A stretch of DNA of 55,573 nt. It comes from Nemertoderma westbladi. Its lineage: Eukaryota > Animalia > Xenacoelomorpha. The notes below the pieces were generated by a model. The model worked only from the letters and a program-made list of their open reading frames with translations. It was not told the origin of the DNA and searched no databases. This document shows, in pieces, positions 6,540 to 43,745 of this stretch (positions within the stretch are counted from its first letter, which is position 1; each line of letters starts with the position of its first letter). A program made the position numbers and the translations under genes. The stretch lies in NCBI GenBank assembly GCA_032718475.1, contig JAUCBJ010004679.1:1-55573 (forward strand). The letters are read 5' to 3'.

Positions 6540-8400
6540 CACAGTGGTCCCAATTGGGAGCATTTTTTTAAATTCAACTGGAGGAAATATAATATAGGCT
6601 TCTGTTACTTTTTTTAATGTTAATATAGTTAGGAAGAGTGGAATATTGTTTTTTATTTTCAACTTCAAGTGTTTTCAAACTTCAAGTTGGTCTTTTGGCA
6701 TGCCAAATTATGCCAATTCTCATTATTTTCGATTTTGTGACATGCAAACAATATTGGTCAAAAACGTTACAAATTTGATATTCCAATCCAGTGGCGACAT
6801 TAAAATTAGACATTTAAATAATATGACATTACTATTTGAAAAAAAAAACCAGAAAAACGACTATCTTGTGCCAAATTACTCTATTTAAAAATTGATGTTC
6901 CCATTTGGGAACACTGGTGAGAAAATAGAATATCAAAAATTAGAAAATAATTGTACGCGATGTATTACTGTTGAAAATCTGGTTATTGAAAAATAGTTTA
7001 AAATTACATAACATATATGTATTATTGTATTTGTGTCCTTCTATATCAAAAAAGACCAGCTATTGTCCCATTTGGGAACACTATATGGGAACGTATTTCT
7101 GCTGTAAAGCAATATAGTACAATTTAACCAAGTACTGTTGGACTATAGATGTAGGTAGGACAAATGCAATATGTATAGCCGAAATAAATCTTCTTATGCA
7201 ATTTTTTGTCCCATTTGGGAACATTGGTAAAATACTTTTTCGCACAAAGTGTTACTTTATTAGGCCAACACTTTACTAGAACTTCAGTTTATCAGTAGGT
7301 TGTATAGGCTCGGCTCAGGACGCAAGAATATGTCTAATGTAACGCAGTAGAGCATGTTGGCTCGGTTCATGGTTCAAACATAGATATAATGGTGCACAGT
7401 AGGCCGTGTTGGCTCGGTTCAGGACGTGAGAATAGATCTAATGGAGCGCAGTAGCGCGTTTTGGCTCGGCTCAGGACGTGAGAATAGATCTAATGGAGCG
7501 CAGTAGGCCGTGTTGGCTTGGTTCAGGACTCGGAAATAGATCTAAAGGAGCGCAGTAGAGCGTGTTGGCTCGGTTCAGGACTCGGAAATATATCTAATGG
7601 AGCGCTGTAGATAATGTTGGCTCGGTTCAGGACTCGGAAATAGGTTTAATGGAGCGCAGTATATCATGTTGGCTGGGTTCAGGGCTCGGAAATAGATCTA
7701 ATGGAGCACACACAGTAGGGCATGTTGGCTCGGTTCAGGACTCGAAAATAGATCTCATGGAGCGCAGTAGGGCGTGTTGGCTCGGTTCAGGACTCGGGAA
7801 TAGATCTAATGGAGCGCTGTAGATCATGTTGGCTCGGTTCAGGACTCAGAAATATAACTAATGGAGCGCAGTATGGCATGTTGGCTCGGTTCAGGGCTCG
7901 GAAATAGATCTAATGGCGCACAGTAAGGCGTGTTGGCTCGGCTCAGGGCGCGAAAATAGATCTAATGGAGCACACACATTAGGGCATGTTGGCTCGGTTC
8001 AGGACTCGAAAATAGATCTAATGGAGCGCAGTAGGGCGTGTTGGCTCGGTTCAGGACTCGGGAATAGATCTACTGGAGCGCAGTAGGGCATGGTGGCTCG
8101 GTTCAGGACTCAGAAATATAACTAATGGAGCGCAGTATGGCATGTTGGCTCGGTTCAGTGCTCGGAAATAGATCTGATGGCGCACAGTAAGGCGTGTTGG
8201 CTCGGCTCAGGGCGCGAGAATAGATCTAATGGAGCACACACAGTAGGGCATGTTGGCTCGGTTCAGGACTCGAAAATAGATCTAATGGGGCGCATTAGGG
8301 CGTGTTGGCTCGGTTCAGGGTGTGAGAATATATACAATGGAGCGCAGAGGGCGTATTGGCTCAATTTAAGGTAGCACAGTGTTCCCAAATGGGACTGACC
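6540..8400. mobile_element. Probable non-autonomous DNA transposon with repeated palindromic subterminal motif GTCCCATTTGGGAACA (Transib-like CACAGTG start); the motif resumes at 22053-22212
   Basis: Motif variants at 6547, 6897, 7065 and 7208, inverted at 8381, 22053 and ~22196. CACAGTG at 6540 and 8375. No right terminus or TSD found. Confidence 0.35.
7307..8362. repeat. ~52-bp GC-rich minisatellite, about 20 copies
   Basis: Unit gttggctcggttcaggactcggaaatagatctaatggagcgcagtagggcgt, period 52 (7564 to 7616), with recurring 56-bp variants containing acacac. Confidence 0.92.
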
Positions 8401-8420
8401 TGGTGATTATTAGATAAATA

Positions 8421-9917
8421 TACTACTACTAGGTCGAGCGAACTCGGACAGTGGAAATGAGATCCTTCCAGGCTTCCCGATTCTCCATAGTTGTCGCAAT
8501 TTCGTTTCTCCCAAGTTCAGTATCCCTTTCAAGTTGATCTATATATGTTATGGCAGGTCGTCCACGACTACGCTTTCCATGAGTTGGTTGCCAGAGAAGT
8601 AGATCTGGTATGAACTCGTCTTTACTTCGCCAGCAGTGCCCACTGAATCTTAATCTGCGTTCACGGAAGGTGGTTGATACAGGTGGTATTGTACCATAAA
8701 GCTCGGCGTTTGTCATTTGTTGTCTCCAGCTGATGTTTAGGGCTGCCCTTAGTAGTCTTGTGTAGCAACCATCAATTCGTTGTTCAAGTGATTTAGTCAG
8801 TGTCCAGGTCTCACCCCCGTATAAAAATACACTTTCCACTGTGGCTCGAAAGAACTTAGTCTTCAGGTGCCTGGAGAGATCTGATTTCCAGATGGTATCC
8901 ATTTTTGATAGAGCTACCCAAGTCTTTGCTTTCCTAACTTCTATGTCCTTTTTGCTACTCTCCTTAGCAGCCCTCTCCACTTTATTTAGTAGAAGCTGTG
9001 CATCTGCTAGCGTATTAGAGAGCAGGGCGATGTCATCCGCAAAGTCGGTGTCTGTGACTGTAGTTGCCGGATATCTACTACTTCTGCGTTCTTAAAGTGT
9101 GAATCCCAGATCTTCACCCTTTGTGGCCGTCCTCATTGCGTAATCCAGCACAATTACAAATAGTAATGGTGCTAATGTGTCACCTTGCAGTACGCCAGCC
9201 AGGATTGAGAAAAACTCAGTTTCACCATCTGGTGATAGTACCTACGCTTCTGTGTCACAATATAACAATCCAATGCCAGCAACAATTACTTCTGGTATTC
9301 CATAAGCTCTTAGGATTTCAAGCATTTTACTTCTATGGATGGAGTCGAATGCCTTCTTGAAGTCCACAAAAGTCATGACTGCGGGGAGATTCTTTGACGT
9401 AATTCCTTCAATCAGTCTCCGTAGTGCAAGTATCTGAGCTATTGTTGATCGACTTGGTCGAAATTCGTTTTGGCTCTTACGCAGTAGTTTCTCTATGTGA
9501 GGCCTAATCCTATATAGAATCATTTTATTGTATGTTTTGGCAGCTAGCACAAGCAGACAGATCCCACGATAGCTTGTTGGTATGCCGAGGTCTCCTTTCT
9601 TGGGGAGAGGCTTTAGTTGACCTTTAGTCCAAATTGGTGGAGGCTTTTCCCCTTTTTACATCCGGTTGCAAACATTCAATAATGGTCTATTTAGCACTCC
9701 GGTTTTCCATACCTCCACTGGGATTTCGTCTAATCCACTCGCTTTATTATTGGACATGCTTTTAATGCTTCTTTGGAGTTCGGCAGGTGTGAAGTCCCCT
9801 GTTTCTATAGGTAGTGTCTTGTCATATATTTTCCTTGTAGGGCTGACCTCGATGTTTGGTGGCTGCCCAAGCAAGTTGCTGAAGTGATTTTTCCACTTCC
9901 CAACACGTTCTTCAGGA
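8421..9917 (-). mobile_element. RTE-clade non-LTR retrotransposon (family RTE-A), 5'-truncated and defective
   Basis: RT motifs KASGLDEIPVE, FVDFKKAFDSIHR, GVLQGDTLAP, FADDIAL and C-terminal RLRFSGHCWR..RGRP; (TAG)n tail at 8421-8432; internal stops and a ~130-bp deletion at ~8960 relative to the copy at 54133-55282. Confidence 0.93.
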
Positions 9918-12900
9918 CGAGCGCAAAGAACGAGAAGTGAGAGAGGCAGCGAGGGCGGAGAGAGAAACGAATGAATATAGAGAGCGGGAGGCGAGAGTAG
10001 AGAGCGAGCGTAGAGAGCGGGTGGCGAAAGAGGCAGAGTTGGCGAACCAGAGTTTGCGAGAGGATAGAGAGAGAGAGAGAGAGCGGGAAAGCGCATGCGG
10101 GATGATATGCATGCCCGGTTGAGGGGGCTTATGCAATATCAGGCCAAACAGAAGCGCTGACTGGAACTGGCGCAGTTGGGATTATCTGAGAGTGAGGCTG
10201 GCTCGGGTAGTGTTTACGAGGAGCCAGAGGTAATGGAAACGTTAGTTAATACCCCACTTACAGGGACCGGACGACAGACCCAAGGCTGGTGTAACCATAT
10301 GGGCAGGGGGGGGGGGGGGGGGGGTGGGGGTAATAATAAAATGCTAGAAGGCGTTAATATTAATAGTACGGTAGTAGACAACACTAATCAAACTTTCATT
10401 CCAGGAAATAACGGAAATTTGCCCGACAATAATAATTTAAATCCGAATATCTCTAATTTAAATGCACAAAATAATTCAAATAATAATTTAAACCAAAATA
10501 TGGAAAATAATTCAAATATACAAAGTAATTCGAATAATTTAAATTTAAATACGCAGAGTAATCTAAATAATAATTTTAATTCAAACGAGCAAAATAATCC
10601 GGATTCCAATCCAAATATACAAAATAAATTAAATAATAATCCGAATTCAGCACAAAATAACTCCAATAATTTTAATAATTTGAATAATAATCTTGATAAT
10701 GGTGCTATCAATATAAACGCAGCAGACGTAGGTGGTCCGACCAGCGAGGGCCTGGAAGGCCACGTAGTCAATACGCAGGGAGCAGCGGGGGTGAGTCAAC
10801 CCGACGAGAGTCTGCTAGACCACGCAGCAGCGGTAGAGGGAGAGGCGGGGGTGAATAGACCCGGCCGCAGTAGAAATAGTGCGTCGGCTAGGGAGAGGTG
10901 TAGAAGCGAAGTAAGAGATAGTCAAGTAATAGGTGGCAAGCGGGGGGGGGGGGGGGGGGGGGGGGCACAGGCGCCCCATGACGAGAGATTAGTGGCGAGA
11001 GGGGGGGGGGGGCAGAGAGTGTCCCACGGGCGTCGGCGGATAATGCGCGGGGCGAATTAAATGAACTGCAGCACCCGGCGATGGAGAATAGTAGGGGGAT
11101 TACGAATGTCCCTGGCCGCGTCCGACCGGGTAGAGAGAGGGACGTTGGCGTCATGAGCGGGCGAGCGACGAGACATCGAGCCCAGTCAGAAGAGGGAAGA
11201 AGAACAGTGGAGTTTAACCGGGAGGTCGATGAGAGATCTCACGAGCGGGGACGCTACACTGAAGAGAGAAGAAGAGAAGAGAACAGAAGAAGGGTCGCTA
11301 TGAGTGACCAGAGAGCGAGGATGGATAGCGAGCTGTCGGTAGTAGAGATGGAGTTGGAGAGTCAGTGGGGTCGAACTCCGGGAGATTGCCGTCGCCCCGG
11401 AGAGACACGGCCTGGCGAGATGTACTATACGCCAAGAGAGGGATACAGAACGTACCGGTACAAGGACGAGAACAGGAGAGGGGATCAAGGGGAAACTTCC
11501 AGACGGGATATAGCTGCTGATCGAGAGTATGGTAGTCGCGGGGAGGACTTCTTGGACTATTCGAGAAGGTTAAACTTCGGTCCGGAGGGACACATACAGA
11601 CTGCAGGTCATATTGTAGGCCTTACTGCACATACTATAGGCCATGCTGGGAGAGATAGTGTATGCGATAGGGTAGCTCAGACAACGGGATTAAACCTGGA
11701 AGTCGCGGAGTATATACTGGTAGGTAGGCCAGAAGTGGATAGGCCTATACCGGTACCAGCACAGCAGTATGACTATAACATGCAGGGACATAACATATAT
11801 CCAGGGGAGGGGAGAGTTATTGCGGATAGGTGTATGGGCCCCAATATATTAACATCAACTCCAGTACCAAACATACCACCGGTGGGGGGGGGGGGGGGGG
11901 GGGATAGGGTGACATTCCCCCATTACAATATCAACAATACACTCAAACAGAAATAAGAACATCAAACCCCCTGGACGAGAACAGGTCTTGCGACATGGAA
12001 ATATGGAGGGGGCCGTTACCCCCAATGGTATATCCGATGCAAAGGAAGACAACAGGCCGGACGGGCGGACCGCACCCAATGGGAGAATCTGTACAGCATC
12101 CTTCGAACCCATTGGAAGCACAGGCGATGGGAATGGCTACACTAATCGATGCGCTCAAGACCAGAATTGAGCTACCACCTGTAGAGCCATTTAAATTCGA
12201 CAGAAGTAGGCCGGAAGAATACCTGCAATTTCGGCGCATGTACAGCAACGAGATATTAACTAAGAACCTGACGCAGGCGGAGTGCCTAAAATATCTACAG
12301 GTATATACAGGAGGCCCAGCATACGACATCGTGAGGCAGTATCAGGGCATCGAGGGTGGCTTCACGACTGCATGGCGGGCCCTAGCCAGGGAATACGGGC
12401 AACCAGCCAAGATCATCCGGCAAACCCCGAGGGGTATAACATCGGGTGGCCTACAGGATAACCCTGTTAGCTTAAAGACGTTTGCGAACAAGGTCGAGAA
12501 GGCGTTAATCGTGCTGAAGACACTAGACGCGCCATACGAACTCAATGCATCTAATAATATCACCACGATAGCGCAGGCACTGCCGATCTGGCTGCTCAAT
12601 AAATGGAGAAAGATCGCCTTCTCCACCCGGGAGAAGAAGGGTGCGGAACCGGGCCTAGAAGAAATGTCGAACTTCCTCAACTACGAAGCTGAGTTGATCA
12701 TGGACCCAGTCTATAGCAAGGATAGTCTGGGGAAGGGGCCAAAGACCGAATATAACAGGCCGAAACCAGAACACAACACGGCAAACGCATTGCCAAAACT
12801 TAGACAATCTCTGCCATACGCGGTGACGCAGGGGACTGCTAGTCCACATGTAGCCGGGGGTAGGGCCACACCATGGAGTGGACAGGGGCAAAATAACAAC

Positions 12901-13232
12901 ACAAACAAATATAACCCCAACACACCCAGTAGGCCAAACCCAAACAATAAGAACAGTAGGGAACTAGGTACGAACGAAGTGCGATACGCAGCGCACTGTA
13001 TAGGGATGGCTATAATCCAAACAACAAATGCCAATTGCATTCGAATGCACTTCATCAGACCATGAACTGCAGATATTGGCAAGCATTGCCCAAACAAGAT
13101 CAGGTAGAATATGCAAGGAAGAGTGGAATCTGTCATCGATGTGTGGCGGGCGGACACAATGCTGATCAATGCAAAGAAACACCAATTACGTTCGGTCAAG
13201 GCAAAGGGCAGACAATGGCGACAACACCGTAG
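9918..13232 (+). pseudogene. gag: BEL/Pao gag (frameshifted): Asn-rich and R/E-rich N-terminus, DUF1759-like core, Cys/His knuckles
   Basis: ORFs 10176-11060, 11081-11956, 11995-13065 (LPPVEPFKFD..EEYLQF..LKYLQVYTGGPAYDIV..AWRALAREYG) and 13035-13232 (CHRCVAGGHNADQC). Several frame breaks lie at poly-G runs. Confidence 0.85.
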
Positions 13233-16200
13233 GGGTGAAGAAAAGAGGAACGGTACTACTTGGGCTAGTACCAGTGAGGGTGATTGGAGAAGGCGATCGA
13301 TCAGTAACCACACTGATGCTAGTCGACAGTGGAGCAGCCTTCACATTGGTGGAGAATTGGGTGGCCGAAGAGATAGGACTAAAGACGAGGCCAAGTAGGA
13401 TGGCGGTAACAACCATCTCCAGCAAAGATGAGGTCCTGGAGATGAGGACGGGACGGTGCGAGATAGCAGCGATAGCACCGGGATGCGACTATGGGGCGAC
13501 CATCGACCCCATCCAGGTAATAGAATCGATCAACATCAAGCCAGGCGACCAACCAACATCGAGGTCGAACAATACAGATTCCTGGACAACATCGATTTCT
13601 CAATACCGGAGGTGGACATCAGGAAGGTATCCATCATAGTGGGAATGGATTGCCCAACGGCCCACGAGAGAATGCAAATGGTCTTCGGCGAAGACAGACA
13701 GCGTGACCCGATGGCAATTCTAACACCATTCGGGTGGACGATAAGCGGCCCAATTAAAACCAAGATTCCGTTTAGGATGTCGGAGACATCAGGGTCCATG
13801 TTCGCAGGAACTATGAGGGAGATGGAAGGAGCGGAGGAGCAGCTTAGGAGACTGCTGAGACAGGACTTTGAGGGATTAAAGGAGACCGGGGTCGGAACCT
13901 CGGTAGAGGATAAACAAGCGATACAAAGTGTGAAGGAGTCAATGAGATGCGACGAGGGGCGGTACACCATAGGCATGGTGTGGAAACAACCAAAATTACC
14001 GCTACCGGAGAACAAGGGAGTGGTACTCACGAGGCTTCGTAAACTGAAGCAAACGCTGAAACGGAGCCCCGAGAAGGATGAGTACATCCATAAGACGATA
14101 AAGAAGTATGTCGAGAAAGGATGGGCCGTGGAGTTGCCGGTCGACGAACTGAACACGGACAGGACCTACTACCTGCCTCTTCATGTGGCTTTAGATCCAA
14201 AGAAAGGTAAATTGCGGATGGTAGTTGACGCATCGGCTAAAACCTACGGCAAGTGCCTAAACGACTATCTGCTGGAGGGCCCCAATATCTATAACTCGGG
14301 AATCGAGGTCCTACTGAGATTTAGAAATGGGAGACACGCCTTCACCTGCGACATTGAAGGCATGTTCAACCAAGTCCGTGTGACGGAGGAGGATAGCGAC
14401 AGCCAGCGCTTCCTATGGTACAACGGCGATGAGGAACCGTCGAAAATACCGATGTACAAGATGGTGGTGCAGAACATGGGGGCCAAGTCGTCCTCATTCA
14501 CGACGACTGTGGCTGTAAGATATACAGTAGAGGGGAAAGAAGGGAAGTATAGTGCCAAAGCGGTCGATATGAATCGACGCGGCTTCTATGTAGACGACAG
14601 AATGGAGTCTGGGAACACGGTTAAAGAACTACTGGATACAGGGCGCGAGGTTCTCGACATCCTGAAGGGATCCGGGTTTAACCTGACCAAGTTCCAATCC
14701 AGCTCAGAGGAGTTTATGAAAGCCATAGAGGACAGACGGCCAGAGTCGACCATGGATAACCCCATAACAGCCAAGGGACAGGACATGGGGAGCAAGAGAG
14801 CGGAGTCTCAGCAGAAGGCACTGGGGATCGTGTGGAACCGGGAGACAGACGAGTTCAAGTACCAACTGAGCCAGGAGGGCGCGGACATCCACACAAAGAG
14901 GGGCTATGTATCGTACATAGCAAGGATATACAATCCCCTAGGCCTAGCATCCTCACTGTTAGTCATGGGGAAACAGATACTTAAGAAAGTTTATAAGTTA
15001 AAGGACGAGTGGGATACAGAAATCAGCAAGCAGTGGAGTAAGTGGACAGGGAGTTTAGAACAGATGGGGACGTACGCGTGTATTTCCCAGATGGGGACAT
15101 GACGGATCTGGACCTATACATGTTCTCCGATGCATCATTGGAAGCATATGGAGCGGCACTCTACGTTGTACAACGAAAGGGGGCTCATAAGCCCAGACTT
15201 GCATTCAGCAAAGCAAAGTGAACGCCGCCAGATTTAGCATCGGTCCCGAAACTCGAGTTGACAGCTGCAAGATTAGGAGTAAGGGCCACAGCCTACTTGA
15301 TCGACACTATTCCCAACATAGTGGAAACGCACTACTGGACGGACTCCATGGTAGTGCTTGGATGGCTGCACAATGAGAAGACGAGATACCCTATATTCGT
15401 CGCAAATAGGGTGGACGAAATAAGGGCGACGACAGGCTTGGAAAGGTGGCACTACTGCCCAACAGACGAGAACCCAGCAGACTTGTTATCGAGGGGCGTG
15501 GCACACCACACTTTCTCAAAGAAGGAAGTGTTGTGGCAGCACGGGCCACACTTCCTGAACGATAGGTCGGCCTGGCTACCAATGAAGAAGGTGGACCCGG
15601 GCTCAGAGGAAGTAGCACCAGGGGAAGAGGGAGAAGACTCAGAAGGTGAAGAGATATATAGTCAGATGGTGAGGGAAATCAAGGGGGTGCAACCAAAATT
15701 AGAACAGCCATGCGACAACCCGATGGATAGGCTTCTCAGCTACAGCTCAAGCTGGTACAAGACCAAGAAGTTGGTGGCGTACTGGAGGGCCTTCGGGGAT
15801 TTCCTCAAGGGAGTTGGCAAGGACGCCAAGAGGAAACCAAACATCGATCTGGAGGGAGCGGCTAAGGCCGTGATACGGTACGAACAGAGAAAGAACTACG
15901 GCGACGAAGTGGAACGCGTCAGCAAACAACAACACCTTCATTGGGACAGCGAGCTCATCACGCTGTCACCACAACTCAATGATGACGGGATTCTGGTGAT
16001 GAATTCCAGAGTGCTGAATAACAACAGCCTCATCATCCCACCAAAACCCATTATCATCCCAAACAGGTCGCCAATAGTCCACCAGATCATTTGGGACTCC
16101 CACAAGTCAATATTGCACAGAGGCACCAACCAGACCCTCAAGGAGATACGGAGGACCTTCTGGATCACGCAGCTAAGAAAGAAGGTGAAGGCGGTAGTGG

Positions 16201-17179
16201 GGCAGTGCCAGACCTGCCGACGGACGAGAAAGGAGCGGGCCGTACAGGAGATGGCGCCATTAGGGTGAGACAGTATGACCCGCCATTCACACACTGCGGT
16301 GTAGATATGTTCGGGCCGATAAAGATCAAGGTGATCGACACACGGAGAAACACTACGGCATCATCTTCGTATGTAACAACACGAGGGCGGTGGAATAGAA
16401 CTCGCCCAAGACGCTACCGCATCGGCATTCATCAATGCCCTAGAGAGATTCAGAGACCGCAAAGGTGGGACGATCGCAGTGATCTATTCCGACAATGGAA
16501 CCAACTTTGTGGGGGCAGAGAATGAGCTGGCGGAGGTCTTGGGCATCCTGGAAGGAGAAGAAGTCAGGGCAGCCATGAGGAGATGACAGGTGAAGTGGGA
16601 AAGGAGGACGCCATATGCTCCGCATACTTTAGGATGCGTCGAGAGACTCGTGGGTAGTTACAAGCGTCTGATGACGAAGTTGATTAACACCCACATGGTG
16701 ACAGAGGATATACTAAGGACGGTGCTAGCTAAGTGCAAGGGTATCATCAATAGCAGACCGCTATATCCAGAAAATAACGACCCAGAATCATTAGATATGC
16801 TAACACCCAGCCATTTTCTGATGGAAAGGCCGGCGACCAGATGTTAGAGATACACTCCCGACAGAGTTGGAAAGTCGCCAAGGCGATAAGCGCAGAGTAC
16901 TGGAGGAGGTGGGTCGAGGAATATCAACCCACATTACATAGGAGGAGCAAGTGGAGAAATACCACCAGAGAGTTAAAGAAAGGTGATTTAGTGATTGTCA
17001 CGGATGACACAATCATCAACAGTCAGTGGAGGCTAGCAAGAGTAGTAGACACTTACTCCGATGAGGACGGAAGAGTCCGATCGGTGGAAGTGCGGATAGG
17101 GGGTAAGATAGAAGCGAAAGATAGGAAGACCTACAGGAGGGCTGTAGGTAAATGTTGCCTGCTAGAAGGGGCACCATAG
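13169..17179 (+). pseudogene. pol: BEL/Pao protease-RT-RNase H-integrase, disrupted by frameshifts and stops
   Basis: LVDSGA protease; YLPLH..KLRMVVDASAK..CLNDYLLEGP..RFR..CDIEGMFNQV..FYVDD RT; FSDAS..ELTAA..WTDS..ENPADLLSRG RNase H; H..H..CQTC zinc domain and CGVDMFGP..SDNGTNF..ERLV integrase; YWRRWVEEY..KGDLV..WRLARV C-terminal domain. Confidence 0.93.
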
Positions 17180-17339
17180 AGTTTAGTCGTCCAAGTGTTG
17201 GACTGAGGGGGGTGGGATTGAGGGCGAGATGCCCTTCCCACAAAAAATATAAAAAATAATAAAAATAATAAAATAATAGAAAGAAAGTAAGAGAAAGGAA
17301 AGCAACAGTACATAGTATGTAGTAGTAAGTAAGTAGGCA

Positions 17340-17745
17340 GATAAGAGTTAGTAGTAAGAGGGTACATAGTACCGTTAGTAAGAGTTAGTAAGAGTTAGTA
17401 GTAAGAGGGTACGTAGTACCGTTAGTAAGAGTTAGTAGTAAGAGGGTACGTAGTACCGCTAGTAAGAGTTAGTAAGAGTCAGTAGTAAGAGGGTACGTAG
17501 TACCGTTAGTGGAGTTAGTAAGAGTTAGTAGTAAGAGGGTACGTAGTACCGTTAGTGGAGTTAGTAAGAGTTAGTAGTAAGAGGGTACGTAGTACCGTTA
17601 GTGGAGTTAGTTAGTAGTAAGAGGGTACGTAGTACCGTTAGAGGAGTCAGTTAGAGAGTAAGAGGGTACGTAGTACCATTAGTTAGAGAGTTAGTAAGAG
17701 TTAGGGAATTAGTGGAGTTAGAGAGTTAGTAGGGTTAGTAGTAAG
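17340..17745 (+). repeat. Purine-rich tandem array in the 3' region of A1
   Basis: About 8 units of 34-44 bp of (gttagtaaga)n-gttagtagtaagagggtacgtagtacc, each containing ggtac-gta-gtacc. Confidence 0.85.
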
Positions 17746-18250
17746 AAGTGAGAGGGGGGCATGTGGGTACAACAGGACAGACTGTGTAGGCCGCACGGGA
17801 CATACTACTGTACTGCACAGCCCGTAGAGTAGGTCAGAATGTTTGATACAGGGCCAGGAGGTTACCTGGTGCAGACTAGCACAGTAAGGAATTGCTAGTC
17901 TATCCTGTATACAAACCATAGGGGTTATTTAAATAAATAATCCATTATAAGTATTGATAGCACAGTAATAGAGTTAAAATCAATATTAAAATTAAAATTC
18001 AACAAATTATAGCAACAGTAGGCAGAAAATCCTATAAAAGAATAACATAATAAAAGTAACTGACAGATTTAGGGAATTTAGGGAAATTTAGCACTTTAAG
18101 GGGTAAATAGGCAAATGCAGCAACAAAACCTAGCGTTCTGAGGGAGATAGGCCATTATCGGACCACACAGACCATCCTAACTACATCACTCACCTATATT
18201 GAGCCTTGGCAAGGCACCACCTTATAGGTGAGCGATCGGGAGCGTTCGAA

Positions 18251-20665
18251 ATGGCGGAGAGACTTGTCAGAAAGAGAAATGCGGAAATGGGTGGAAAGGA
18301 GATACTAGTAGATTTCACCGAGAGGCATCCGGAGGAGAAGACGAGGGGATACTACGAGCGGTTAGAGAATGGTCACAAGGCGCGAGCGCTGCAGGACCAT
18401 TTCAGGGAGGTGCACGAGAGGCGGCTGGTTGGGACCTACGGGACGCCGTCGCTAGACAACGCGATCCTTGAGCATTTCCACTATGTGGTGAAGGGAGACA
18501 AGGCGAAGTTCGGGATACCAAAGTATCTGAGGGAACCACCGAAAAAGGACTGGAAGAGGTTTGTAGAGTCCGTCAGCAGGGGGGGATACATGGTCCTGGA
18601 CGACGAAGGGACCGTGGAAGACGACGAGGGTTCGAGGAGAGGGTCGGCGGGGTCGGCCAGAACCATACTTCTGCATTTGGCTGCGCCAAATGGGGACACA
18701 TTCCTGTTTGATCTGGGAACGTATGGGAAGAAGAGCGGGCCGAAGTTGAACCAGTTGCCAAGGGTGGTGCAGAACGTAGTAAGGGAGAAGTCGACGATGA
18801 AGGTGGGATCGGCGATCCGCGACGATGCGGAGAGGATCATCGGTCCGGAGACCCCCAACCTCCTGGACATGCAAACGGTCTACATGGCTATGACAGGGCC
18901 AGCAGGGTTGGGACTAGTAGAGAACACAGGACATTGTGGAGCGGTGGTGATGGGCCAGCTGATGGGGCTCGTCTGCCACAAGCCGATGGACTGGAGTAAA
19001 TTCAGGGAGGAGTACGGAGCGGACTTGGCAAACTCGCTGAAGTGGGGAGCGAGGCCAGGGAAACAGGAGGTGTATCAATTCTGGAGAGGAGCGATAAAGA
19101 TATATCAGAAGCGATATATCCTGTAGGAGGATTGGATGATGATAGGTTTACTAAACCTATTCATGGCCGTGGGAGGGAGGTGGATGGGGAGGTGGATACA
19201 CCATATCAGAGGTGGGAGAAGCTGGAGGCAGATAGACAAGAGGAGAAGCGATTGGAAGAAATCGCTAGACGAGAAAGGAGGGAGGCAGACGAAAGAGAGG
19301 CGGAAGCTAGGGTTCGAGGCCCAGGCCTTGGACGATTTGCAGTGGGCATCAGGGAGCTCAGGCGAGTCCCTGGGGCAAGAGTTGGGATGGACGGGAGGAT
19401 CGCCGAAACAGTCGACATCGGGATTGCAGGCGACGCCCATGCCAGCGGGCGCCGAGGGCGATTTCGCGAAGAAAAGACCAGGGGAACGGGAAGGATGGAA
19501 AGTCACGGGCGAGAGCCAAGGTGGGAAGGGATACAGTGGGTCTACCGGGATACCGGGTTTGGAACCACTCCCAGCGGAGGACGAGGATGACGACGAGTTC
19601 GGGGAGATGCCGCCCATCGGGAGAATCGGCCACTCAGACACGGACTGGGTTGGCGGGAGAGTGGTGACGGCCAGCGGGGCGAGGGCCTTCTGGGATAAAC
19701 CCGGCAAGTGGGCCTGGGTGCATGAGGAGCCGGCGATGGATTTCGCGGGGAGCACCATCAGGTTGGGTGAGCAACCGGGAACGGCACCACGGGTAGTGTT
19801 CGGAGAGACGATGCCGAGGTGAGACGAGGACATAGATATGGACAGAGACGTTAACGTCCAGAAGTTTGCTTACCAGCGGCTCCATAGACCGAGGAGGTCG
19901 CTTGGGGCAAAGGACGACTTGGGGTGGGATGCGTTGGTACTCAGCTGCGATTACTGCGGGAGGCTTACTCACCAGGAAAGGAGCTGCTTGTATCGATTCC
20001 AGAAGGGGACGAGCTGCCTCTACTGCCGCGAGTTGAGTCACAGGATGGGGGCGTGTCCACGGTTGCACAACCGGTGTTCTAAGTGCAACTTTCGGGGGCA
20101 CTATGGACGCCAGTGCGACTGGATGGATGACGAGGAGAAGTTTAAGATCTTCGAGGAGTGGGCCGATGTCGGCGTCATGACGCGGCAGCGAATGAAGGCC
20201 CTGGAATTCCGGTGGGGTTTCTTTAATATTAACCAGGAGGCCCACCTGGAAATCATTAAACTGAGACTTCCGTTTACTTATCAAGAAGTAGCAACGGCGG
20301 CATCGTATGCTGGAGTGATGAATACGCAGAGGTATTTAGATAAATGGGCGCCAGAGAACCGGGGAGAGTTCAGAGATTTCCTGGCGGAGCATGTGCCGCG
20401 GGCCATGAAGTTGATCTTATGGGATGCTACTAGGGGAAAGCAGCAGGGGCATTCGGAGGGGCCACCTGCGAAGCGATACCGGGAGCTAATAACACCAGCG
20501 CCCAAGGAATCGACCACGGGAATCAGTAGGGAAGTAACGGCAAGGATGAGGGACCTTAAGGGGGACAAGAGCAAGGGAGCGGTGTCAACCAGGAAGCGAC
20601 CGAGACAGAACGACAACAGAGGAAAGGAACTGAGATGGTTCCCAAAGACGGGAGGAGCAGAGTAG
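18251..20665 (+). pseudogene. Extra ORF of A1: DEDD (WRN/EXD/RNase D-like) 3'-5' exonuclease, charged linker and three CCHC zinc knuckles; interrupted by stops
   Basis: ORFs 18206-19126, 19136-19822 and 19838-20665 share one frame, broken by single stops. Exo I VLDDEG, LLHLAAPNGDTFLFDL, LPRVVQNVVREKSTM, Exo II KVGSAIRDD, LLDMQ, Exo III-like IKIYQKRYIL*ED. Three exact C-x2-C-x4-H-x4-C motifs at 19946-20116. Confidence 0.75.
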
Positions 20666-21413
20666 GACTCGGAGGGGAGATGTGGGGATGCCTGGAAGGC
20701 ACCACATGCGAAGTAATACGAACTTCTAAGTGCAAATTTAATAAAAGTGCAATTAGTATGTACGTATGTAGTAATCGATAGAATATAATCATATAATCAA
20801 TACAATCAATATAATCAAAGTAAGTACTATAGTCATGTAACCTTTTTCCAACTAGCTAGTGGGACTGGGGACCAACTGACTATGACAGGACGGGACACTA
20901 GTCGACTCACACTTCTTGAGTGCGACGGCACGAGAGGGGAGGGTGAGGCTCGTCAGGAGTGAGTGGAGCGGAACGAGTAGGGGTTGAGTACAGGAATGCA
21001 GGGGAGATAGTGAGAGGTGTGTTGATGCGTGTGGAGAGAAAACGGGTGCGATTCAAATGTGGGGGGGGGGGGGGGGGGCGAGGAGTAAGAGGCAGAGTGA
21101 GGGACAAAGAGGTCCGAAAGTAGAGTGGAGTTAGAGTGGAACTAGAGAAGTCAGAGTCAGTGCAGGGTAGAGTGGAGATATAAAATTGTGTGAGATGAGT
21201 CCACAATTGTCTCGAACCGAGACGCCAGATGTCTTGGTGCAACATAGGTTGGGGTTGCACCAAGAGGGGGTAGCAACATCATCCCCAGAGGGAGCAGCCT
21301 GGAAAGCCGACTCCAAGAAAAGAACTCCACCCCACACCCGATAGTAGTTCGGGTTCCAGCGGAATTGAAGCGCACTTATGGGTGATGCTATCTTCTCACC
21401 GGGAAGATAGCAT

Positions 21414-21422
21414 GGGGGGGAG
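21414..21422 (+). promoter_or_regulatory. Polypurine tract of A1
   Basis: gggggggag immediately before the LTR TGT; same arrangement in A2 (44352-44359). Confidence 0.8.
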
Positions 21423-22027
21423 TGTAAGCGGATTCAGTTCCGCTGCAACACCCTCATAAATGGGAAGTGGCACATTTTCAGTAATATGTCGAAGGTACGA
21501 GATTGGTAATAACCAATCTCGTATCACAACCAATGACCGGGGACGACACGAACCCCAAAGCCACACAAAGGGAGGTTAGAGGTCAAACCACCTCGGGAGG
21601 GAAAAATAACCAACAGGGGCCAACAGGGGGAGGGAAGCACTCCCAGAGAGGTGAGAGGCGTGAAGTAGGTTATCAGCCAATAGGAGCGGGGGAGAGCATC
21701 CACTGAACAAACGCCACAGTAGTGTAGAAATGATTACATATATATTGTCAATGCATAACATTACCGGTTCAGTTACTCAGTCGTCAGTTCAGTGCAGACC
21801 GGTGATATTCTATACCGTCGCCGTCACCAATACATATATTTACCGGTACAGCATCCATCATATATCAATGCTGCCTAACTGTAACTCTTACTGTGCTATC
21901 ACATATATATTCATTATCCGAGTATCAAGAAACATCAATTAACTCTTATTGTTTTACTGCAACGGCCTCGGCCTAGGTATCACCCAAAGGTAAACACGGT
22001 GACGCGTAATATACAAATCCGGTCACA
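21423..22027 (+). repeat. 3' LTR of A1 (605 bp)
   Basis: Starts tgtaagcgg, ends ggtcaca; colinear with the A2 LTR (agccaata, TATA-like, tcagtt, caacggcctcggcct, gggtaaacacggtga blocks). Confidence 0.85.
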
Positions 22028-22244
22028 CAAATCACCAAAAAAACATAACCAGTGTTCCCAAATGGGACATGAAAGAAAGAAAGCCCCCATGACCAATAAA
22101 ATTGTATAAAATCGGTTTGTGGTTTTCAATATTTTGAGACACTACTTCTTATTTTTGTTATTCTATAAAATATAGTGGATTAGCTGTGCTGCCAGTGTTC
22201 ACAAATGGGAACAGGTCTTTTTTGAGAAAACTAACAAGTGCAAT

Positions 22245-22476: not shown

Positions 22477-24254
22477 CCCTATTAAACCCGGGGGGGGGGG
22501 GGTCAATATGACCCGCCCGTGGTTTTTTTGTTATAATTCTGAAACAAACGCAGTTGGGAATCTGAAATTTTATGACTTTTCCTAAAAATCTATTGTCTTT
22601 CTAGTAATGAAAACCGTTTTCAAAGATATTGGGTAGTTTTCAAGTTATAGCACCATTTTTTAACCCTACTTTTGGCACTTTTTTTTGAGACGTTTTTTGA
22701 AAATTACAGTTCATTACATATGATTTGTAACATCTCTATTTTTGATTTACACCGGTTTTTTGGTGTTAGCAATTGGATGGAATTCATATAAATTGATGTA
22801 GAAATCTTGTTTTTTTTCGGCGGGTGCCAAATTTTGGTGCCAGCACCAAATTTTGAAATATGTAAATTTTGTAAATTGATTGTTTGAAACTTGTTTTATA
22901 CGCAATTGGGGTTTTTTTGGGTTCTGGTTTCGATGGAATATATACCAGTTGAACCAAGCGTATCAAACTTGTATTTTTCGGTGCTGTGTGCAAATTTTGT
23001 GCTAGCACGAAATTTTGAAAATCCATTCAATAGATAAAATTGCTTGTGACAATTTATTTCTTGCGTTTTACAGTATAAGTTTATGGCTGTTTTGAATTTA
23101 ATGGAATATATAATTATCGAACTAGATTGTATTTTTCGGAAGTGGGTGCAAAATGTGGTGCTAGCACCAAATTTTGAAAACCATCAAATATATCAATAGA
23201 TTGTGTCACCTTGTTTCTTGCGTTATACGGGTTTCTGAGGGTTCTGAATTCAATGGAATCAGTAAAAATTTCATAAGAGTTTTCAAACTTGTATTTTTCG
23301 CCGAAGAGTGAAAATTGTTGTGCCAGCACCAAATTTTTGAAAATAAGCAAATTGATCAGTAGATAGTATCATCTTGTTTCTTGTGTTATACGGGTTTATG
23401 AGGGTCCTGAATCCGATGGAATCAATAAAAACATCACTGGACATCGCATTGTACTTTTTGGTGATGGGTACGAAATTTGGTGCTAACACCAAAATTTGCC
23501 AAATTACGCCGAAAAATACAAGTAGCAATGATCTGGCATATTAGAAATGTATTCCATTAGAATCAGCGCCCTAGAAAACCTATAAATGTGAATTTATAGC
23601 ATTGTATAAGCGAATAAAAAATTTTGTGTTCTAACTTTTCATTTTTTTCCTACGCAGATAGGACTAAACAGCCATTTATAGTATTCATATCATTTTTTAA
23701 ATATTTTCCAATGTACTTTGCGCCCCAGAAAACCTGTATTGAAATACAATTAGCCGAAAAATGTAACTTTAAAATTTTGTGAATATTGTGCACTACTTGT
23801 AATTTTGGTGCTGCAAAATAACCAGCCCTGTACATTTTTTCGAAATTTTTTTTTCGGTCTGATCCGGACTAGTGATACCGACGTACAAACAAAAAATCAG
23901 TCGTTTTCTTAAAAATTTGTAGATTTTAGAGGGGGGGGGGGGGGGGGGGTGTCAATATGACCCTGTGATTATTTAATATTATCAATAATAGTATATCTAA
24001 ATTAATAACCTGTGTGAGAGAAAGTGAGTAGTGAGGGAGAGAGAATAGAGGAGAGGCAGAAAGGATTGGAAAAGTTGGCATAGTTATTGTGTGATGAATT
24101 GAAAGTCGAGATTGTTTCAGATTGTTTCTTGTTTATTTATTTAGTGTAATTAATTTCATTAATATTATCATTAATATATTGTTTAAATATTAAATTGTAT
24201 ATTCATATAAATTGCTTGTGTTTTCAATTACAAGCTATCACCACAACCAATATT

Positions 24255-24996
24255 ATGTCATTAAAGTTGCAACAATTAATCCGATCATTTAATGGCAAAG
24301 GTGATTTTCAAGAGTGGAAAAAGAAATTCGACCTTGTAGCAAGATCTCAGAAATGGGAAGAGAAGCATCTTTACTTGCCGATATTTCTGGAAGATCACGC
24401 TTTTACCGTTTATGACCAGTTAGACGATGTCAACAAAGAAAACTACGAAGTTATTGAAGCGACTTTAACTAAGGCGTTTTCTGTTACACCCTATCAAGCG
24501 TATACGCAGTTTGTAAGTCGGAAATGGGGCGTTGGGGAGGCGGTTGAAGTTTATTTATCGGACCTGAAACGTTTACTTGTGTTGTCTGATCTGAAACCTA
24601 CTGACATCGAAAGGTTTCATCCCGTGTTGAAATGTCAGTTTATTTGTTTATTGTCTACCAAGTGAGGTAGGTAGTCAACTTTTGACACTTACTGCGGTTG
24701 ACGATTATACGCTATCGTTGGAAGATCTCATGACCCGTGCTAGAAATATTATAGTTGATAAGAAACCAGATGACTCCTTGTATGCCGTGGGAGCGGTAGG
24801 AGGTAAAACGATAGTAGACCATCGCCATCTAGCGGGTCAAATAACAAACCAACGACAACTTTTGTTTGTTATAACTGTCAGAAAACTGGTCATTATTCCT
24901 CGAGTTGTCCGGAGAAGAAATCGATTAGATGCTTTAGGTGCGGTGGAGGAGGGCACATCGCTAGAGATTGCCCTTCTAAATGGTCGGGAAACGTGA
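24255..24996 (+). pseudogene. gag: gag of element C with two CCHC knuckles (frameshifted)
   Basis: MSLKLQQLIRSFNGKGDFQEWKKKF..LPIFLEDHAFTVYDQL; CYNCQKTGHYSSSC and CFRCGGGGHIARDC in a shifted frame. Confidence 0.8.
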
Positions 24997-27900
24997 AAGG
25001 GGGGTTGTAGGAGTTGCCGCACAACCAACCTCCCAGTTAAAATCCCCTAGATGTGCGGTTACATTATCTATTAACAACTATGAGCAACGTTACAAGTGCA
25101 AGGTGGGTATAGATACTTATTGTTCCCATACTATTGTTTCTGCTGGTTATTTATGTAATAAACCAAGTGCAAATTACTCAAATCAGTTCAGTCAGTCATT
25201 ACAAATGTTAAATGGTAGTAAAGTAAGAGTTATCGGTAAAGTGCAATTACATGTATATGATTTACCTGGTGTTGACAATTGTGTGCTCATTGAAGCGTGG
25301 GTGGTACATGGATGTAACATTTTTGATGTTGATATACTGCTTGGAATGAATGTTATTTTAAAACTAGGTGGTTTGAATGTTGTTACAAATCCTGTTAGAA
25401 ATTGTATCACTGCTGTTAGATTTCCGAATAATGTACTTGACAATGAAGTGTGTGGAGCTGTTAACAAAGTAAATGATAGTGATGACAAGGACAAAGGCTA
25501 TGAATCAGTAGGTAAATGTAAATCGAATATATTAACATCTAATACTGCTACTGTTCAGTGTTATGACAATGGCGATGTGACTATATCTGAAAGCGATTTT
25601 GTTGTAAAGTATTCAAGTGCAAAAGGGTTTTGGGAAGTTGAGTGGTTATGGAAAAGTGGAAATATACCAGTTGGTACTGTTGGCAGTGGTATTTCAGATT
25701 ATGGTATGAAATTGTCCAATGATCACATGTCCATGTTTTCAAAGGAAATGCAATTTTGGATAATAAATTTTTGGTTGAATATAAAGAAAATGTACATGGC
25801 AATGTCAAATGTGTTCTACCTGTAATGCCTGTGGTACAGGAACATAAACTTAGTACACCAGTGAGGCCAGTATTAGATTACAAACGTCTAAATGATTTAA
25901 TTGAAAGTTATCCAGGACAGCAAATGTCAGTCTGTAGTGAGAAAATACGAAAGTGGAGGCAATGGTCTGATAATTGTTCACTACTTGACATCAAGAAAGC
26001 GTACCTGCAAATTCGTGTAGCTCCACATCTGCTGTGTTATCAGGTAGTAGCGTATCAAGATAAACTGTATGTAATGTCTAGAATGGGATTTACTATTGTT
26101 GAGTTTATATTGTTTCATGCGTACAGCTTTTCACGCAATTGTGTTGACAGTTATGTTGACGACATCGATGTCGATCAAGATATTGTTTCTTGCAATGAAG
26201 TGTCACTTGCTTTAAACACGTATGGATTGCCTACAAAGGAACCAGTCCCAATAGAAGATAGTTGTGTGTTGGGTTTACAGATTGTAAATTCAAACGGCGT
26301 TTTGAAATGGACAAGGCGGGAAAAGGGGGATTTAAAACCAAATGTTTCCCAAATGTCTCGAAGGGAGCTCCATTCTTGGTGTGGTAAATTAATAGGTATA
26401 TACCCAGTTTGTGGATGGCTTCGTGTAGTATGTAGTTGGATGAAGCTTCAATGTAGTGAAGTTGAAGGACATTGTGATTGGGATGACCCAATACCTCCTT
26501 GGGTGTTAAACTTAGTCTTGGATGTTTGGAAAATAATTCAGCACAATGATCCTGTAGGAGGCATATGGCGGGCCAAGGTAGAGGATAAATGTTGTGTATT
26601 GTTGTGGTGCGATGCAAGTGATGTTGCAAAGGCAGTTGTGCTAGAAATTAATGGAGAAGCAGTAGAGGATTGTGCCTGGTTGAGAAAGAAGCGCGAATCA
26701 AAACTTCACATCAATGTTGTAGAATTAGATGCCGTTTTAGAAGCTGTTAATTTAGCCATTAGTTGGGAGATAAAGGATATCACCATCTGTACAGATTCTA
26801 TAACAGTTTGTCGTTGGGTGCAGTCTACCTTAAAGAATATACAACGTGTACATAGAGATGGTATGTATGTAAATTTAGTTAAACGACGACTGGAGCTTAT
26901 TCTAGAACTGACAAGAGTATACAAGTTAAATGTCAATATTCAGTGGGTTACTTCAAAGACGAATAAGGCTGATGTACTTACAAGATTACCTAAAGAGTGG
27001 TTATCTCCGAAAAAGTCACATATATGTAAAGAGAGTGGACGTCAATTGATAGAAAATGTTGAAAGTTTTGGTGGCATTGTTAAGAGTAACCAGAGTGAGT
27101 ATTACTGTGGTATATCTCTGTGTCGTATAAAGGAGGAACAATTGAATGACGCAGAAATTCAAAATCTTTTCAGCAAAGCCAAAGTTTTGTCAAATTTTAA
27201 TGGCATAAAAAGTCAGATTATCTCGTTTGATGATATATTATTTAGAACAGTGAAGGTTCCCCCAGATGAAGAATTTAATGTTCCCCTGCTATGCTATCAA
27301 AAACTCTAGAATGTGAAGCAATCGCGAATGTTCACAAATCATATGGGCACCCCTGCCATGAAACGACCAGAGAATTGTTGCGTCGTAAATGTTATTTCCC
27401 GAATATGTCAAGTAAATGTCAAGAATACTTAAGGAACTGCGAGGCATGTTCATTAGCAAATCCGTTAAAGCCAGAAAGTAGTGTTGGTAACGCGCGCATG
27501 GTTATTCCTGACAGACCATGGCAGGTTATCCAGATGGATACAGTCAAAATTCCAGGGGACAGTTATTATGTTGGGTTATTGGTTTTATTTGATGTCCTGA
27601 CCAAATACGTTGAAGTAGTATAAATTAAAAGCTATTCTCATGATGACATAATCGAGGCATTGTTAGAAATATGTCGACGCTGAGGGCCTCCAGAGATTAT
27701 CCGTAGCGACAGTGGTACTGAATTGTGGAATCGTATGACAAAGGAGTTATTTAATCAATTCAATATAGTAGTGCGACGAGGAGCCGTTAGACATCCTGAA
27801 AGTCAGGGTGCGGTGGAGAGATTCCATAGAACATTCCTAACTCTTATTAGAAAAACTGTTGACTGCAATCGATCATGGAAAGCAGATATAGATTTACTAC

Positions 27901-28541
27901 TATACTATTATCGCCATCGTCCAACTACTACAACATCAGTTACACCTACTAAGGCAATGTGTGGTTGGGACTGGCAGACACCAAGAATAAATAGAGACGC
28001 ATCGATAAGTATGATAAAATATTGCAGCCGTGACCCCAAGTTAGTCGACTATCTAGATGAGTGCCTATCTCATCTAGACAAGTTGTCTCTTAAACCTCCG
28101 AGAGTATTTTCAACGGGGGATCAAGTATATTTACAGCGTGAAGCGCGTGCACCAAAATCATTGAACCTATGGGTTAAAACTTGGTCAATTGTCGACATCG
28201 TTAATGAATCAACTGTTGTCATTAGCCACAACAATGGAAAGTTTCGTGACAAGATTGTCAATATTCACATTATTAAGCATGCAGTGGAAGTAGACTCTGA
28301 TAATGTTGTAAAGCTGGAACGTAGTAACATAGGATCCAATACTGATAGATCTAAAACTCTTTCATCTCATTTAGATCATGAAGTGGTAGTTAATGAATTG
28401 ATCGCTGGTGAAGAGATTAGCTCTTCAGATAACGTTGTCGAGGAGATTGGGATTGAAAGCAGTGACGACAGTGTAGAGTTAGAAATTCCGAGAAGATCCA
28501 CCCGTGTGCGTCGTCCAGTAGATCGTTACGGTATTATATAA
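24980..28541 (+). pseudogene. pol: pol of element C (protease-RT-RNase H-integrase), disrupted
   Basis: IDTYC protease; RPVLDYKRLN..LLDIKKAYLQI..MSRMGF (following motif apparently deleted in frame)..YVDDI; WCDAS..HINVVELDAV..TDS..NKADVLTR; H..GHP..CEAC zinc domain; PWQVIQMD..SDSGTE..HPESQGAVERFHRT. Confidence 0.88.
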
Positions 28542-29006
28542 AAAATTGATTGTTGAATTCCATTTTGATAAAAAATTGCGCGAATATTTTATCAGGGGAA
28601 GGTGTGATTATTTAATATTATCAATAATAGTATATCTAAGTTAATCAGCTGTGTGAGAGAAAGTGAGTAGTGAGGGAGAGAGAATAGAGGAGAGGCAGAA
28701 AGGATTGGAAAAGTTGGCATAGTTATTGTGTGATGAATTGAAAGTCGAGATTGTTTCAGATTGTTTCTTGTTTATTTATTTAGTGTAATTAATTTCATTA
28801 ATATTATCATTAATATATTGTTTAAATATTAAATTGTATATTCATATAAATTGCTTGTGTTTTCAATTACAACCCCCCCCCCGGTATTTGTACAACATTT
28901 TATAGCCCGGTACTAATAGGGTTAAGACGGTTGACCATTACAAATATTTGGGGATTTATTTTGATGAGCTTGGACATTTTTGTAAAGCTGTTAGTAGTAG
29001 AGACAC

Positions 29007-32470: not shown

Positions 32471-32740
32471 TAAGTTGGAAAGTTGGAAAGGGCGCCTTTA
32501 AGCAATATTGGGGAGTACGAGGTTGATTACCAATCAACCTCGTATCACCCCCAATAAATGGGGACGACAAACCCCAAAGGGCCTCACACAATGGAGGTCA
32601 TAGGTTAAGCCTCCGGGGAGAAGGAAAGTAACATCAGCGGGGGGGGGGGGGGGGGGGGGGGAAACTATCCCACAGAGTAAAAGGCGTGAAGTGGGAAATT
32701 AGCCAATAAGGAACAAGGAAGGTATCGCTAGATGAAGGCC

Positions 32741-33275
32741 TAGTACTAGGATCGGCATGCTGCATTGCAGCTGCATTTTTAAGAATGCTGTGCCGGCTTG
32801 TCAACAAAATTGCACCGCCACAATTCCCTATCACCCATGACATTTGCTAGATCATCCGCATCTTTAAGGCCAGTGTCCTTTAAGATGCGTCTCAAGAAAG
32901 TCATGGGCTGTCCACCATGCTTATTCACTCCATGAGGCTGCCAAAGTACAAGATTATGCACTGGCTGGTCCTCACGGCGAAAGCAATGTCCTGCAAAGCG
33001 GAGGCGATTTTGTTCTAGTGTCAAGCTTGGGGGAACCAATGAGACACCTCCAATGTTATATAGTGTCTGGTTGGAGATGTGTGCATTGTACTTGACACAA
33101 TGTACCCGGCGTAGCATTCTTGTGAATGTGCCATCCAGAGATTTGGTGTCCTCAGCAGTTAGAGCCCAGCATGGACTCCCGTAGAGGAGTACTGAAACTA
33201 CTGCTGCTCTAAATAATCGGACCTTAAGTTTCCGATTAATTCTCGGTGACTTCCAAATCCTGGAAAGCCTATTCA
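32741..33275 (-). mobile_element. RTE-clade LINE 3' fragment (family RTE-B) inserted in the A2 5' LTR
   Basis: 11-bp TSD agatgaaggcc (32730-32740 / 33276-33286), empty site in the 3' LTR; ORF KVRLFRAAVVSVLLYGS..RLRFAGHCFR. Confidence 0.93.
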
Positions 33276-33309
33276 AGATGAAGGCCACAGTACCATAAGG
33301 GTGTTTAGA

Positions 33310-33345
33310 TATATTATGCTATGTACCATACCGGTCAGTTAGTTT
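33310..33345 (+). promoter_or_regulatory. Putative LTR core promoter (TATA-like plus TCAGTT initiator)
   Basis: tatatta at 33310-33316 and TCAGTT at 33335-33340 at appropriate spacing; similar arrangement in the A1 LTR (~21740-21775). Confidence 0.45.
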
Positions 33346-33610
33346 ACCCAGTCACTCAGTGAACACCGGTGACATCTTTGCACCGTCATCGTCACCCAAT
33401 ACTGCTATGCCGGTACATATCTTGTCAATCTACTATTGCTGCTTAACTGTAACTTACTGTGTCATATATATATATATCATTATCTGAATACCAAGGAACA
33501 TCAATCAATTCTTATTGTTTCACTACAACGGCCTCGGCCTCGGCACCCAAGGGTAAACACAGTGACGCGTAGCAAACCAAATCCGGTCGGGATCCCTCGA
33601 TCCCGTCACA

Positions 33611-33620
33611 GTGCAAAGAT
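33611..33620 (+). promoter_or_regulatory. Non-tRNA primer-binding position, complementary to the element's own LTR
   Basis: gtgcaaagat directly follows the LTR end (..gtcaca) and is the reverse complement of atctttgcac at 33374-33383; no TGG nearby. Confidence 0.6.
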
Positions 33621-43544: not shown

Positions 43545-43745
43545 CCACGAGTAGCAGAAGGGTTGTGGGCACCAGAAGCGCCACGTAGAAAGTAGTAGTA
43601 GAGAGGTTGTGAGAGCCGGAAGCGCCACGTAGATGGAGGTAGTAGCAGAGAGTGGTTGTGGGCACCGCAAGCGCCACGTAGATGGAGGTAGTAGCAGAGG
43701 GTGGTTGTGGGCACCGAAAGCGCCACATAGAAAGTAGTAAGCGGA
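43545..43745 (+). repeat. 44-49-bp tandem array in the 3' region of A2, followed by (agagtt/agt)n tracts
   Basis: gcgccac recurs at 43578, 43622, 43671 and 43720. Confidence 0.8.

Follow-up and report, generated by a model that had tools for sequence, protein, structure and literature searches.

A selected third gene with zinc knuckles and a probable, very divergent DEDDy nuclease domain in a BEL/Pao retrotransposon of Nemertoderma westbladi

Organization of the element and its surroundings

The window analysed here is the whole 55,573-nucleotide contig JAUCBJ010004679.1 of Nemertoderma westbladi (assembly GCA_032718475.1). A decayed BEL/Pao retrotransposon occupies its plus strand from about 10160 to 22027. 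The gag region (10161-13065) is decayed by several frameshifts and matches DUF1759 over 11908-13062 (Pfam, E 3e-10). The pol region (13166-17179), which also contains stops and frameshifts, encodes protease (PR), reverse transcriptase (RT) with a YVDD motif, RNase H (RH), integrase (IN) and a DUF5641 tail that runs up to the pol stop at 17179; its Pfam matches are Asp_protease_2, Peptidase_A17 (E 4e-11), Integrase_H2C2 (E 4e-12) and DUF5641 (E 2e-24). The pol order is PR-RT-RH-IN, as in Belpaoviridae, and the BEL-type markers DUF1759, Peptidase_A17 and DUF5641 are all three above the Pfam cut-off. Downstream of pol, on the same strand, are a purine-rich tandem repeat spacer (17250-17750), recognized from its repeat family and sequence, the third gene, ORF3 (18251-20665), a polypurine tract (PPT, 21414-21422) and a 3' LTR of the TG...CA type (21423-22027). 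The 5' LTR and the primer site of this ORF3-bearing element are absent from the window, and even without its 5' LTR the element measures at least 12 kb. A LINE fragment (8421-9621) lies upstream of the gag region. The gag region opens (10161-11060) with a long Asn-rich low-complexity frame and an Arg/Glu-rich stretch before DUF1759, and this opening is longer than in the sister element described below.

The 3' end of the element was fixed by alignment with a defective sister element at 32479-44974. The alignment begins at 20987 and runs through the PPT, which is supported by its sequence and by the matching place in the sister, into the 3' LTR, which aligns to both LTRs of the sister. ORF3 therefore lies inside the element, in the env slot. 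Together with the Pfam markers, this bears out an earlier note on this DNA, which had placed the frame in a BEL/Pao host between pol and the PPT/LTR. The other possibility, an independent insertion with its own termini, found no support: no LTR pair, inverted termini or second copy bounding the ORF3 module was detected in the window. A nested LTR element around ORF3 had been considered from purine runs followed by TG near 17760 and 20680, and was ruled out for lack of a repeat pair. No Rfam match was found in 17100-22100 and no tRNA gene in the window. A 14-base inverted repeat within 18185-18236, directly upstream of the ORF3 start codon, might influence translation or splicing.

The two LTRs of the sister element are 97.4% alike, and its gag and protease are 84% alike to those of the main element. 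In place of RT, RNase H and integrase it has an unrelated ORF (35977-36588) that contains a hydrophobic stretch, stops where pol stops and has no Pfam match; the ORF3 module is absent as well. The 10 bases after its 5' LTR (33611-33620) pair perfectly with 33374-33383 inside the LTR, a result seen in 4 of 2000 shuffles, and the complement of this primer site is also present at 44740-44749. The site does not start with TGG, and the layout is of a non-tRNA, self-priming-like kind. Nested in the sister (36737-43418) is another BEL/Pao element, which looks complete and belongs to a different family; its LTRs are 99% alike, and it has a TGG-type primer site and a further insertion in its leader. 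Elsewhere, the window holds a young LTR element (23964-28872) with 270-base LTRs (99%), gag knuckles, an RT-like region, DUF7047 and RNase H. On the minus strand, a 439-residue frame (45183-46502) with only a weak zf-C2H2 match in Pfam resembles the C-terminal region of non-LTR elements that have a zinc finger and restriction-like endonuclease. A 254-residue hydrophobic frame on the plus strand (4632-5396) looks by eye like a fragment of a seven-helix receptor and has no Pfam match above cut-off.

The ORF3 frame and its conservation among copies

ORF3 starts at the ATG at 18251 and ends at 20665. In this copy it is interrupted by in-frame stops at 19124 and 19820 and has lost short stretches at about 19172-19187 and about 19310. 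A likely DEDDy (WRN/EXD2-like) exonuclease domain (18581-19171), suggested by targeted profiles, models and by-eye alignment to WRN and EXD2, is followed by a charged helical stretch (19187-19310), a low-complexity, partly acidic linker (19311-19945), three CCHC zinc knuckles (19946-20116) and a C-terminal region with a basic tail that belongs to no known family and matches nothing in Pfam (20117-20665). All motifs listed in the earlier note were recovered in place: VLDDEG starts at 18593, KVGSAIRDD at 18800, LLDM at 18860 and YQKRYIL at 19103, the last followed by the stop at 19124 and by the E/D pair at 19127-19132. By itself, this motif order is only modestly above chance. Over 19 residues, hydropathy in the 18251 frame never exceeds 1.39, and the first 40 residues lack a hydrophobic core; the frame thus has no membrane segment or signal peptide and gives no sign of env, just as had been claimed.

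Other copies of the family were sampled by aligning public short contigs from four runs (three samples) to the stretch at 80% likeness; three runs of one organism had about a third of their sampled words in common. Contigs covered 30 of 30 bins of 16500-22100 in three of the four runs and 29 of 30 in the fourth. In runs X1-X3, 8,111-14,677 contigs were aligned, with 13-54 contigs per listed ORF3 site, similar to pol sites, and the number of variants over ORF3 was similar to that over integrase. Summed contig depth is a rough measure only and gives no copy number. The family is clearly multi-copy. Contig depth over the pol tail and the pre-LTR region exceeds that over pol or ORF3, and there may be many short derivatives like the sister element.

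The stop at 19124 belongs to this copy alone: none of the aligned contigs carries it, the entire depth differing from it in all four runs and three samples. The second stop, at 19820, does not appear among the variants listed, and contigs cross it without gaps; ORF3 is probably one protein across this site. At about 19165-19172 the contigs of other copies diverge from this copy and rejoin it at about 19187 (four of four runs), and a second departure and rejoining was seen near 19307-19310 (three of four runs), with depth dips at both places. Hence this copy is without two short stretches, which explains the local frameshift suspected earlier. Between the two deletions, the likely coding frame is that of the ORF at 19000-19590, whose translation gives the charged helical stretch; loose contig ends and depth dips mark both borders of that stretch.

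Selection was evaluated on 33 of the best 40 variants listed and on 14 of 17 further listed ORF3 variants (from the best 40 of 1098); the site of the first stop and six variants almost confined to one contig beside a compensated indel were left out. Among these listed variants, 34 sites vary among copies; 27 of them fall on third codon positions in the frame of ORF3 (p 5e-8), and 25 are silent, where 32% would be expected. Only two of the 13 listed sites private to this copy are at third positions, as expected for decay after insertion. The linker (19311-19945) shows purifying selection in the 18251 frame, with 24 of its 30 listed among-copy sites at third positions and 23 silent. Because 30 of the 34 sites lie in the linker, the nuclease core is backed mainly by gapless pieces that are 12-18% diverged. 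Gaps were present in 2 of 19 listed pieces inside ORF3 versus 5 of 7 in the non-coding flanks (Fisher p 0.006, six pieces spanning borders or pol being left out), and the single piece with several gaps has a net loss of three bases. A connection from the ORF3 module into the pre-LTR region (20909-21074) is provided by one diverged contig; no aligned short contig joins ORF3 to pol across the tandem repeat. The third-position and silent bias, the rarity of gaps and the private nature of the first stop answer the question raised in the earlier note of whether the frame is under purifying selection in other copies. In this multi-copy BEL/Pao family, ORF3 is a genuine accessory gene that selection holds in frame.

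The N-terminal domain and the zinc knuckles

ORF3 is an orphan in every protein database searched. A word-index search with its N-terminal 291 residues, at longer and near lengths, found no homologue. Among 1.84 billion protein representatives the same residues gave two matches, both rejected as unrelated repeat proteins, and no homologue; no match was found in viral, metagenome and prokaryote contigs or phages. Contig searches with the RT region of the element likewise found no related loci. Pfam, NCBIfam, PHROGs and PDB sequences returned no exonuclease match for ORF3. In the comparison with Pfam that the earlier note had proposed (DNA_pol_A_exo1, WRN_exo), no ORF3 match rose above cut-off, and the curated cut-off of PF01612 was not reached with or without reading through the stop as X. 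Since ORF3 fails the curated Pfam test, we do not file it as a member of a DEDDy family.

Targeted test profiles were built from bacterial PF01612 proteins. Against a 60-sequence EXD2/WRN-like profile, the N-terminal part of ORF3 scored 6.5 bits (P 2.8e-4), a value that would be unremarkable in a library-wide scan; the significance of the HMM match is confined to the Exo II region, a helix-strand-helix at residues 170-208. This score was reached by none of 2000 global and none of 2000 local shuffles, nor by any of 250 column-shuffled and 250 block-shuffled decoy profiles, and the N-terminal part of ORF3 was the top domain of the profile across six frames of the window. End-to-end alignment to the same profile gave z 3.6-4.3 versus global shuffles, and under two gap settings its score was reached by 0 and 8 of 1091 real window pieces. 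The score climbed with profile diversity, from 3.2 bits for a narrow EXD2-like profile (reached by 2 and 1 of 2000 shuffles) to 6.5 bits. A mixed profile gave 1.8 bits (z 1.4-2.0), no signal came from a short-RNase-D profile (z 0), and neither BLASTP nor hhalign of the lone ORF3 sequence against bacterial exonucleases reached significance (hhalign probability 0.4-3.5%). Among the sequence searches, the claim of a DEDDy exonuclease thus has in its favour a weak signal from the targeted profile, which exceeds its shuffle and decoy controls, and finds no counterpart in the sequence libraries.

Candidates for the catalytic residues of such an enzyme are present. Exo I would be formed by D117 and E119 (18599-18607), Exo II by D192 (18824) and Exo III by Y289 with E293 or D294 (19115-19132), so that the tyrosine and acidic residues occupy all four expected places. 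The form of Exo III is Y-x3-E-D, slightly odd against Y-x3-D, with either E293 or D294 as the fourth acid. Compared by eye with mouse WRN exonuclease, the 24-residue stretch LPRVV...IRDD needs no gap and is identical at 7 positions, and the two preceding strands keep the WRN spacing in alignments to WRN and EXD2. Two automatic alignments placed Exo I in a different register.

Structure prediction followed by Foldseek, also proposed in the earlier note, gave a divided answer. The unguided single-sequence model (pLDDT 35) had no nuclease match in the fold search. Its strands at 113-116, 137-144 and 150-158 and its helix at 171-178 coincide with those of a guided model, and the strand and helix order in this low-confidence model fits what the DnaQ fold needs. 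The guided model was made from 41 bacterial exonuclease rows trimmed to the domain, with X at the stop, and reached pLDDT 69 overall, 77-88 over its residues 31-110 and 56 at Exo I. Its likeness to WRN exonuclease (Z 11.8, rmsd 3.0, 144 residues) is circular and uncontrolled and speaks for compatibility only. EXD2 came first in Foldseek (best E 1.5e-3), the structural neighbours include Egalitarian, EXD1 and TbRND, and there was no match to viral structures at E <=0.001. From the profiles and models combined, we consider it likely that the N-terminal part of ORF3 adopts a DEDDy fold. Given that fold, acidic residues at the Exo I, II and III places together with the tyrosine make activity plausible, and we would lean towards a catalytically active domain.

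The three knuckles (19946-19987, 20015-20056 and 20075-20116, plus strand) follow the pattern C-x2-C-x4-H-x4-C exactly, confirming what the earlier note had read as perfect, and only four further knuckles of this pattern occur in six frames of the window. In the PDB, the knuckle region weakly resembles LIN28 (E 0.024) and TbRND (E 0.19). Copying from the element's own gag was considered and rejected, as the best match to the gag knuckles is at E 1.5.

Relation to known systems and possible function

DnaQ-like domains are known accessory domains of LTR elements (PMC6338049, in excerpt), and DEDDy ORF3s occur in the Juno and Vesta LTR elements and the Terminons of bdelloid rotifers (PMC5408684 and PMC6431247, in excerpts), in agreement with the statement in the earlier note on gypsy-like and Penelope-like elements. 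According to the excerpt of PMC5408684, the ORF3 of Juno/Vesta and Athena/Terminon resembles the present gene in being a separate third gene after pol, without TM segment or env character and of DEDDy type. It differs in that its hosts are gypsy-like or Penelope-like instead of BEL/Pao and in its strong HHpred homology and DEED motif, the domain described here being far more divergent; a CCHC array is not named in that description, whereas the present ORF3 has three knuckles and a further domain. The element agrees with Belpaoviridae that have an env-like third gene in gag, PR-RT-RH-IN order, PPT, LTR and a third gene in the env slot. In contrast to the ICTV profile of Belpaoviridae, where third genes are only env-like and the length is 4.2-10 kb (PMC8742986), its third gene is not env-like and it spans at least 12 kb without the 5' LTR. 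Dada and KolobokD also carry DnaQ-like nucleases, with DEDDy/DEDDh domains, but they are DNA transposons, and the Dada domain sits within the transposase (PMC3706591 and PMC9587614, in excerpts).

We found no report of an exonuclease in BEL/Pao in the literature searched; Repbase reports, subscription journals and supplements were outside the search, and an earlier mention may exist. The word 'exonuclease' is absent from the text of PMC3118150 examined, which was an excerpt. The earlier note had regarded the exonuclease-plus-knuckle architecture as unfamiliar in BEL/Pao, which these searches leave standing, although the architecture itself is known outside transposons, in TbRND (PDB 7c42; PMC7797062, in excerpt), where a DEDDy exonuclease is followed by a CCHC knuckle array. 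TbRND turned up in the exonuclease profile search, in the fold searches and, weakly, in the knuckle search. As described in the same excerpt, its knuckles boost RNA binding and cutting, and their removal lowers both sharply; it is a host mitochondrial enzyme with four knuckles near the domain, whereas ORF3 belongs to a transposon and has three knuckles about 250 residues away. The likeness may be convergent. WRN, EXD2 and Mut-7/Nibbler (Pfam DNA_pol_A_exo1) share with ORF3 the motif order and the helix-KxG-x5-D core, and this group provides the best neighbours of the guided model, but ORF3 falls below all curated cut-offs, has extra residues inserted behind Exo I and strand 3 and ahead of Exo III, and carries Y-x3-E-D.

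On balance, we slightly favour the reading that ORF3 is a selected accessory gene for a DEDDy-fold, knuckle-linked protein that handles RNA 3' ends. In a fuller scheme, the protein would be made from its own or a spliced transcript, and a WRN/EXD2-like DEDDy 3'-5' exonuclease domain, probably joined to the three CCHC knuckles, would trim RNA 3' ends; by analogy with trypanosome RNase D, the knuckles would hold on to single-stranded RNA and deliver its 3' end to the nuclease. The substrate most likely to be useful to a transposon would be host small silencing RNAs or their precursors, so that ORF3 would act as a counter-defence. Where a selfish element retains a separate gene under selection, counter-defence against host small-RNA silencing would seem its most plausible purpose; the whole chain, from knuckle-fed trimming to counter-defence, is put forward tentatively and is less likely than not. 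Mature piRNAs bear a protective 3' methyl group, which counts against a piRNA target. Somewhat more doubtful still is the specific version in which a BEL/Pao knuckle-guided 3'-5' exoribonuclease, TbRND-like but of independent origin, destroys or mis-trims piRNAs or siRNAs and so helps to explain the high copy number; in bdelloids, the presence of ORF3 does not clearly track copy number (PMC5408684, in excerpt).

Several other explanations of the same observations have to be weighed, all of which we regard as unlikely. The domain could have the DEDDy fold but be catalytically weak or dead and act as an RNA binder like EXD1, Egalitarian or Maelstrom, shielding or carrying element RNA or soaking up piRNA factors. 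Two of these proteins, Egalitarian and EXD1, are among the structural neighbours, inactive DEDD derivatives take part in piRNA biogenesis (PMC5408684, in excerpt), Exo III reads Y-x3-E-D instead of Y-x3-D and is preceded by about 35 extra residues, and model confidence is lowest at Exo I (pLDDT 56); yet all four acidic places and the tyrosine are filled, and we think such a loss of activity improbable. We would give less weight to a nuclease in the service of replication, which, within the particle, would trim either the 3' ends of RNA/cDNA or an RNA primer that the element makes itself. The sister element is without a TGG-type tRNA site, its LTR-complementary primer site could need 3' trimming, and the DEDD nucleases of Dada and KolobokD have been proposed to process transposition intermediates (PMC3706591 and PMC9587614, in excerpts). 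However, the window does not include the primer site of the ORF3-bearing element, whose LTR is different at the corresponding place, and ORF3 is a separate gene, unfused to pol or gag.

It is slightly less probable again that the N-terminal part is no exonuclease, that its motif likeness arose by chance and that ORF3 is an orphan RNA-binding protein of another fold. This would account for the absence of a library match, the uninformative unguided fold and the ambiguous register of Exo I, but it sits poorly with a targeted profile score above all shuffles and decoys, with the strand and helix order and with the gapless likeness to WRN. Least probable of all, in our estimate, is a module from a separate non-autonomous family with the same LTRs that template switching brought together with this pol. 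Such exchange is brought to mind by the sister, in which a different ORF replaces most of pol and the ORF3 module is absent, and no aligned contig spans pol to ORF3; the module, though, is without termini of its own, and contig numbers and summed depth over ORF3, a rough measure, resemble those over integrase.

Our preferred reading remains the selected accessory gene whose product would handle RNA 3' ends, and we regard ORF3 as probably a very divergent DEDDy nuclease with knuckles. With a selected, orphan, non-env ORF3 that bears a likely nuclease domain, the capture of DEDDy domains, published for gypsy-like and Penelope-like elements of bdelloids, would reach a further family of retrotransposons, here with a proposed RNA-gripping knuckle array added to the captured nuclease. 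Should small RNAs be its substrate, ORF3 would be a rare example of an animal-transposon enzyme directed at host silencing; should it trim a self-made primer, a step of tRNA-free priming would be explained. Because its host has so many copies of the family, natural variation can show which residues matter.
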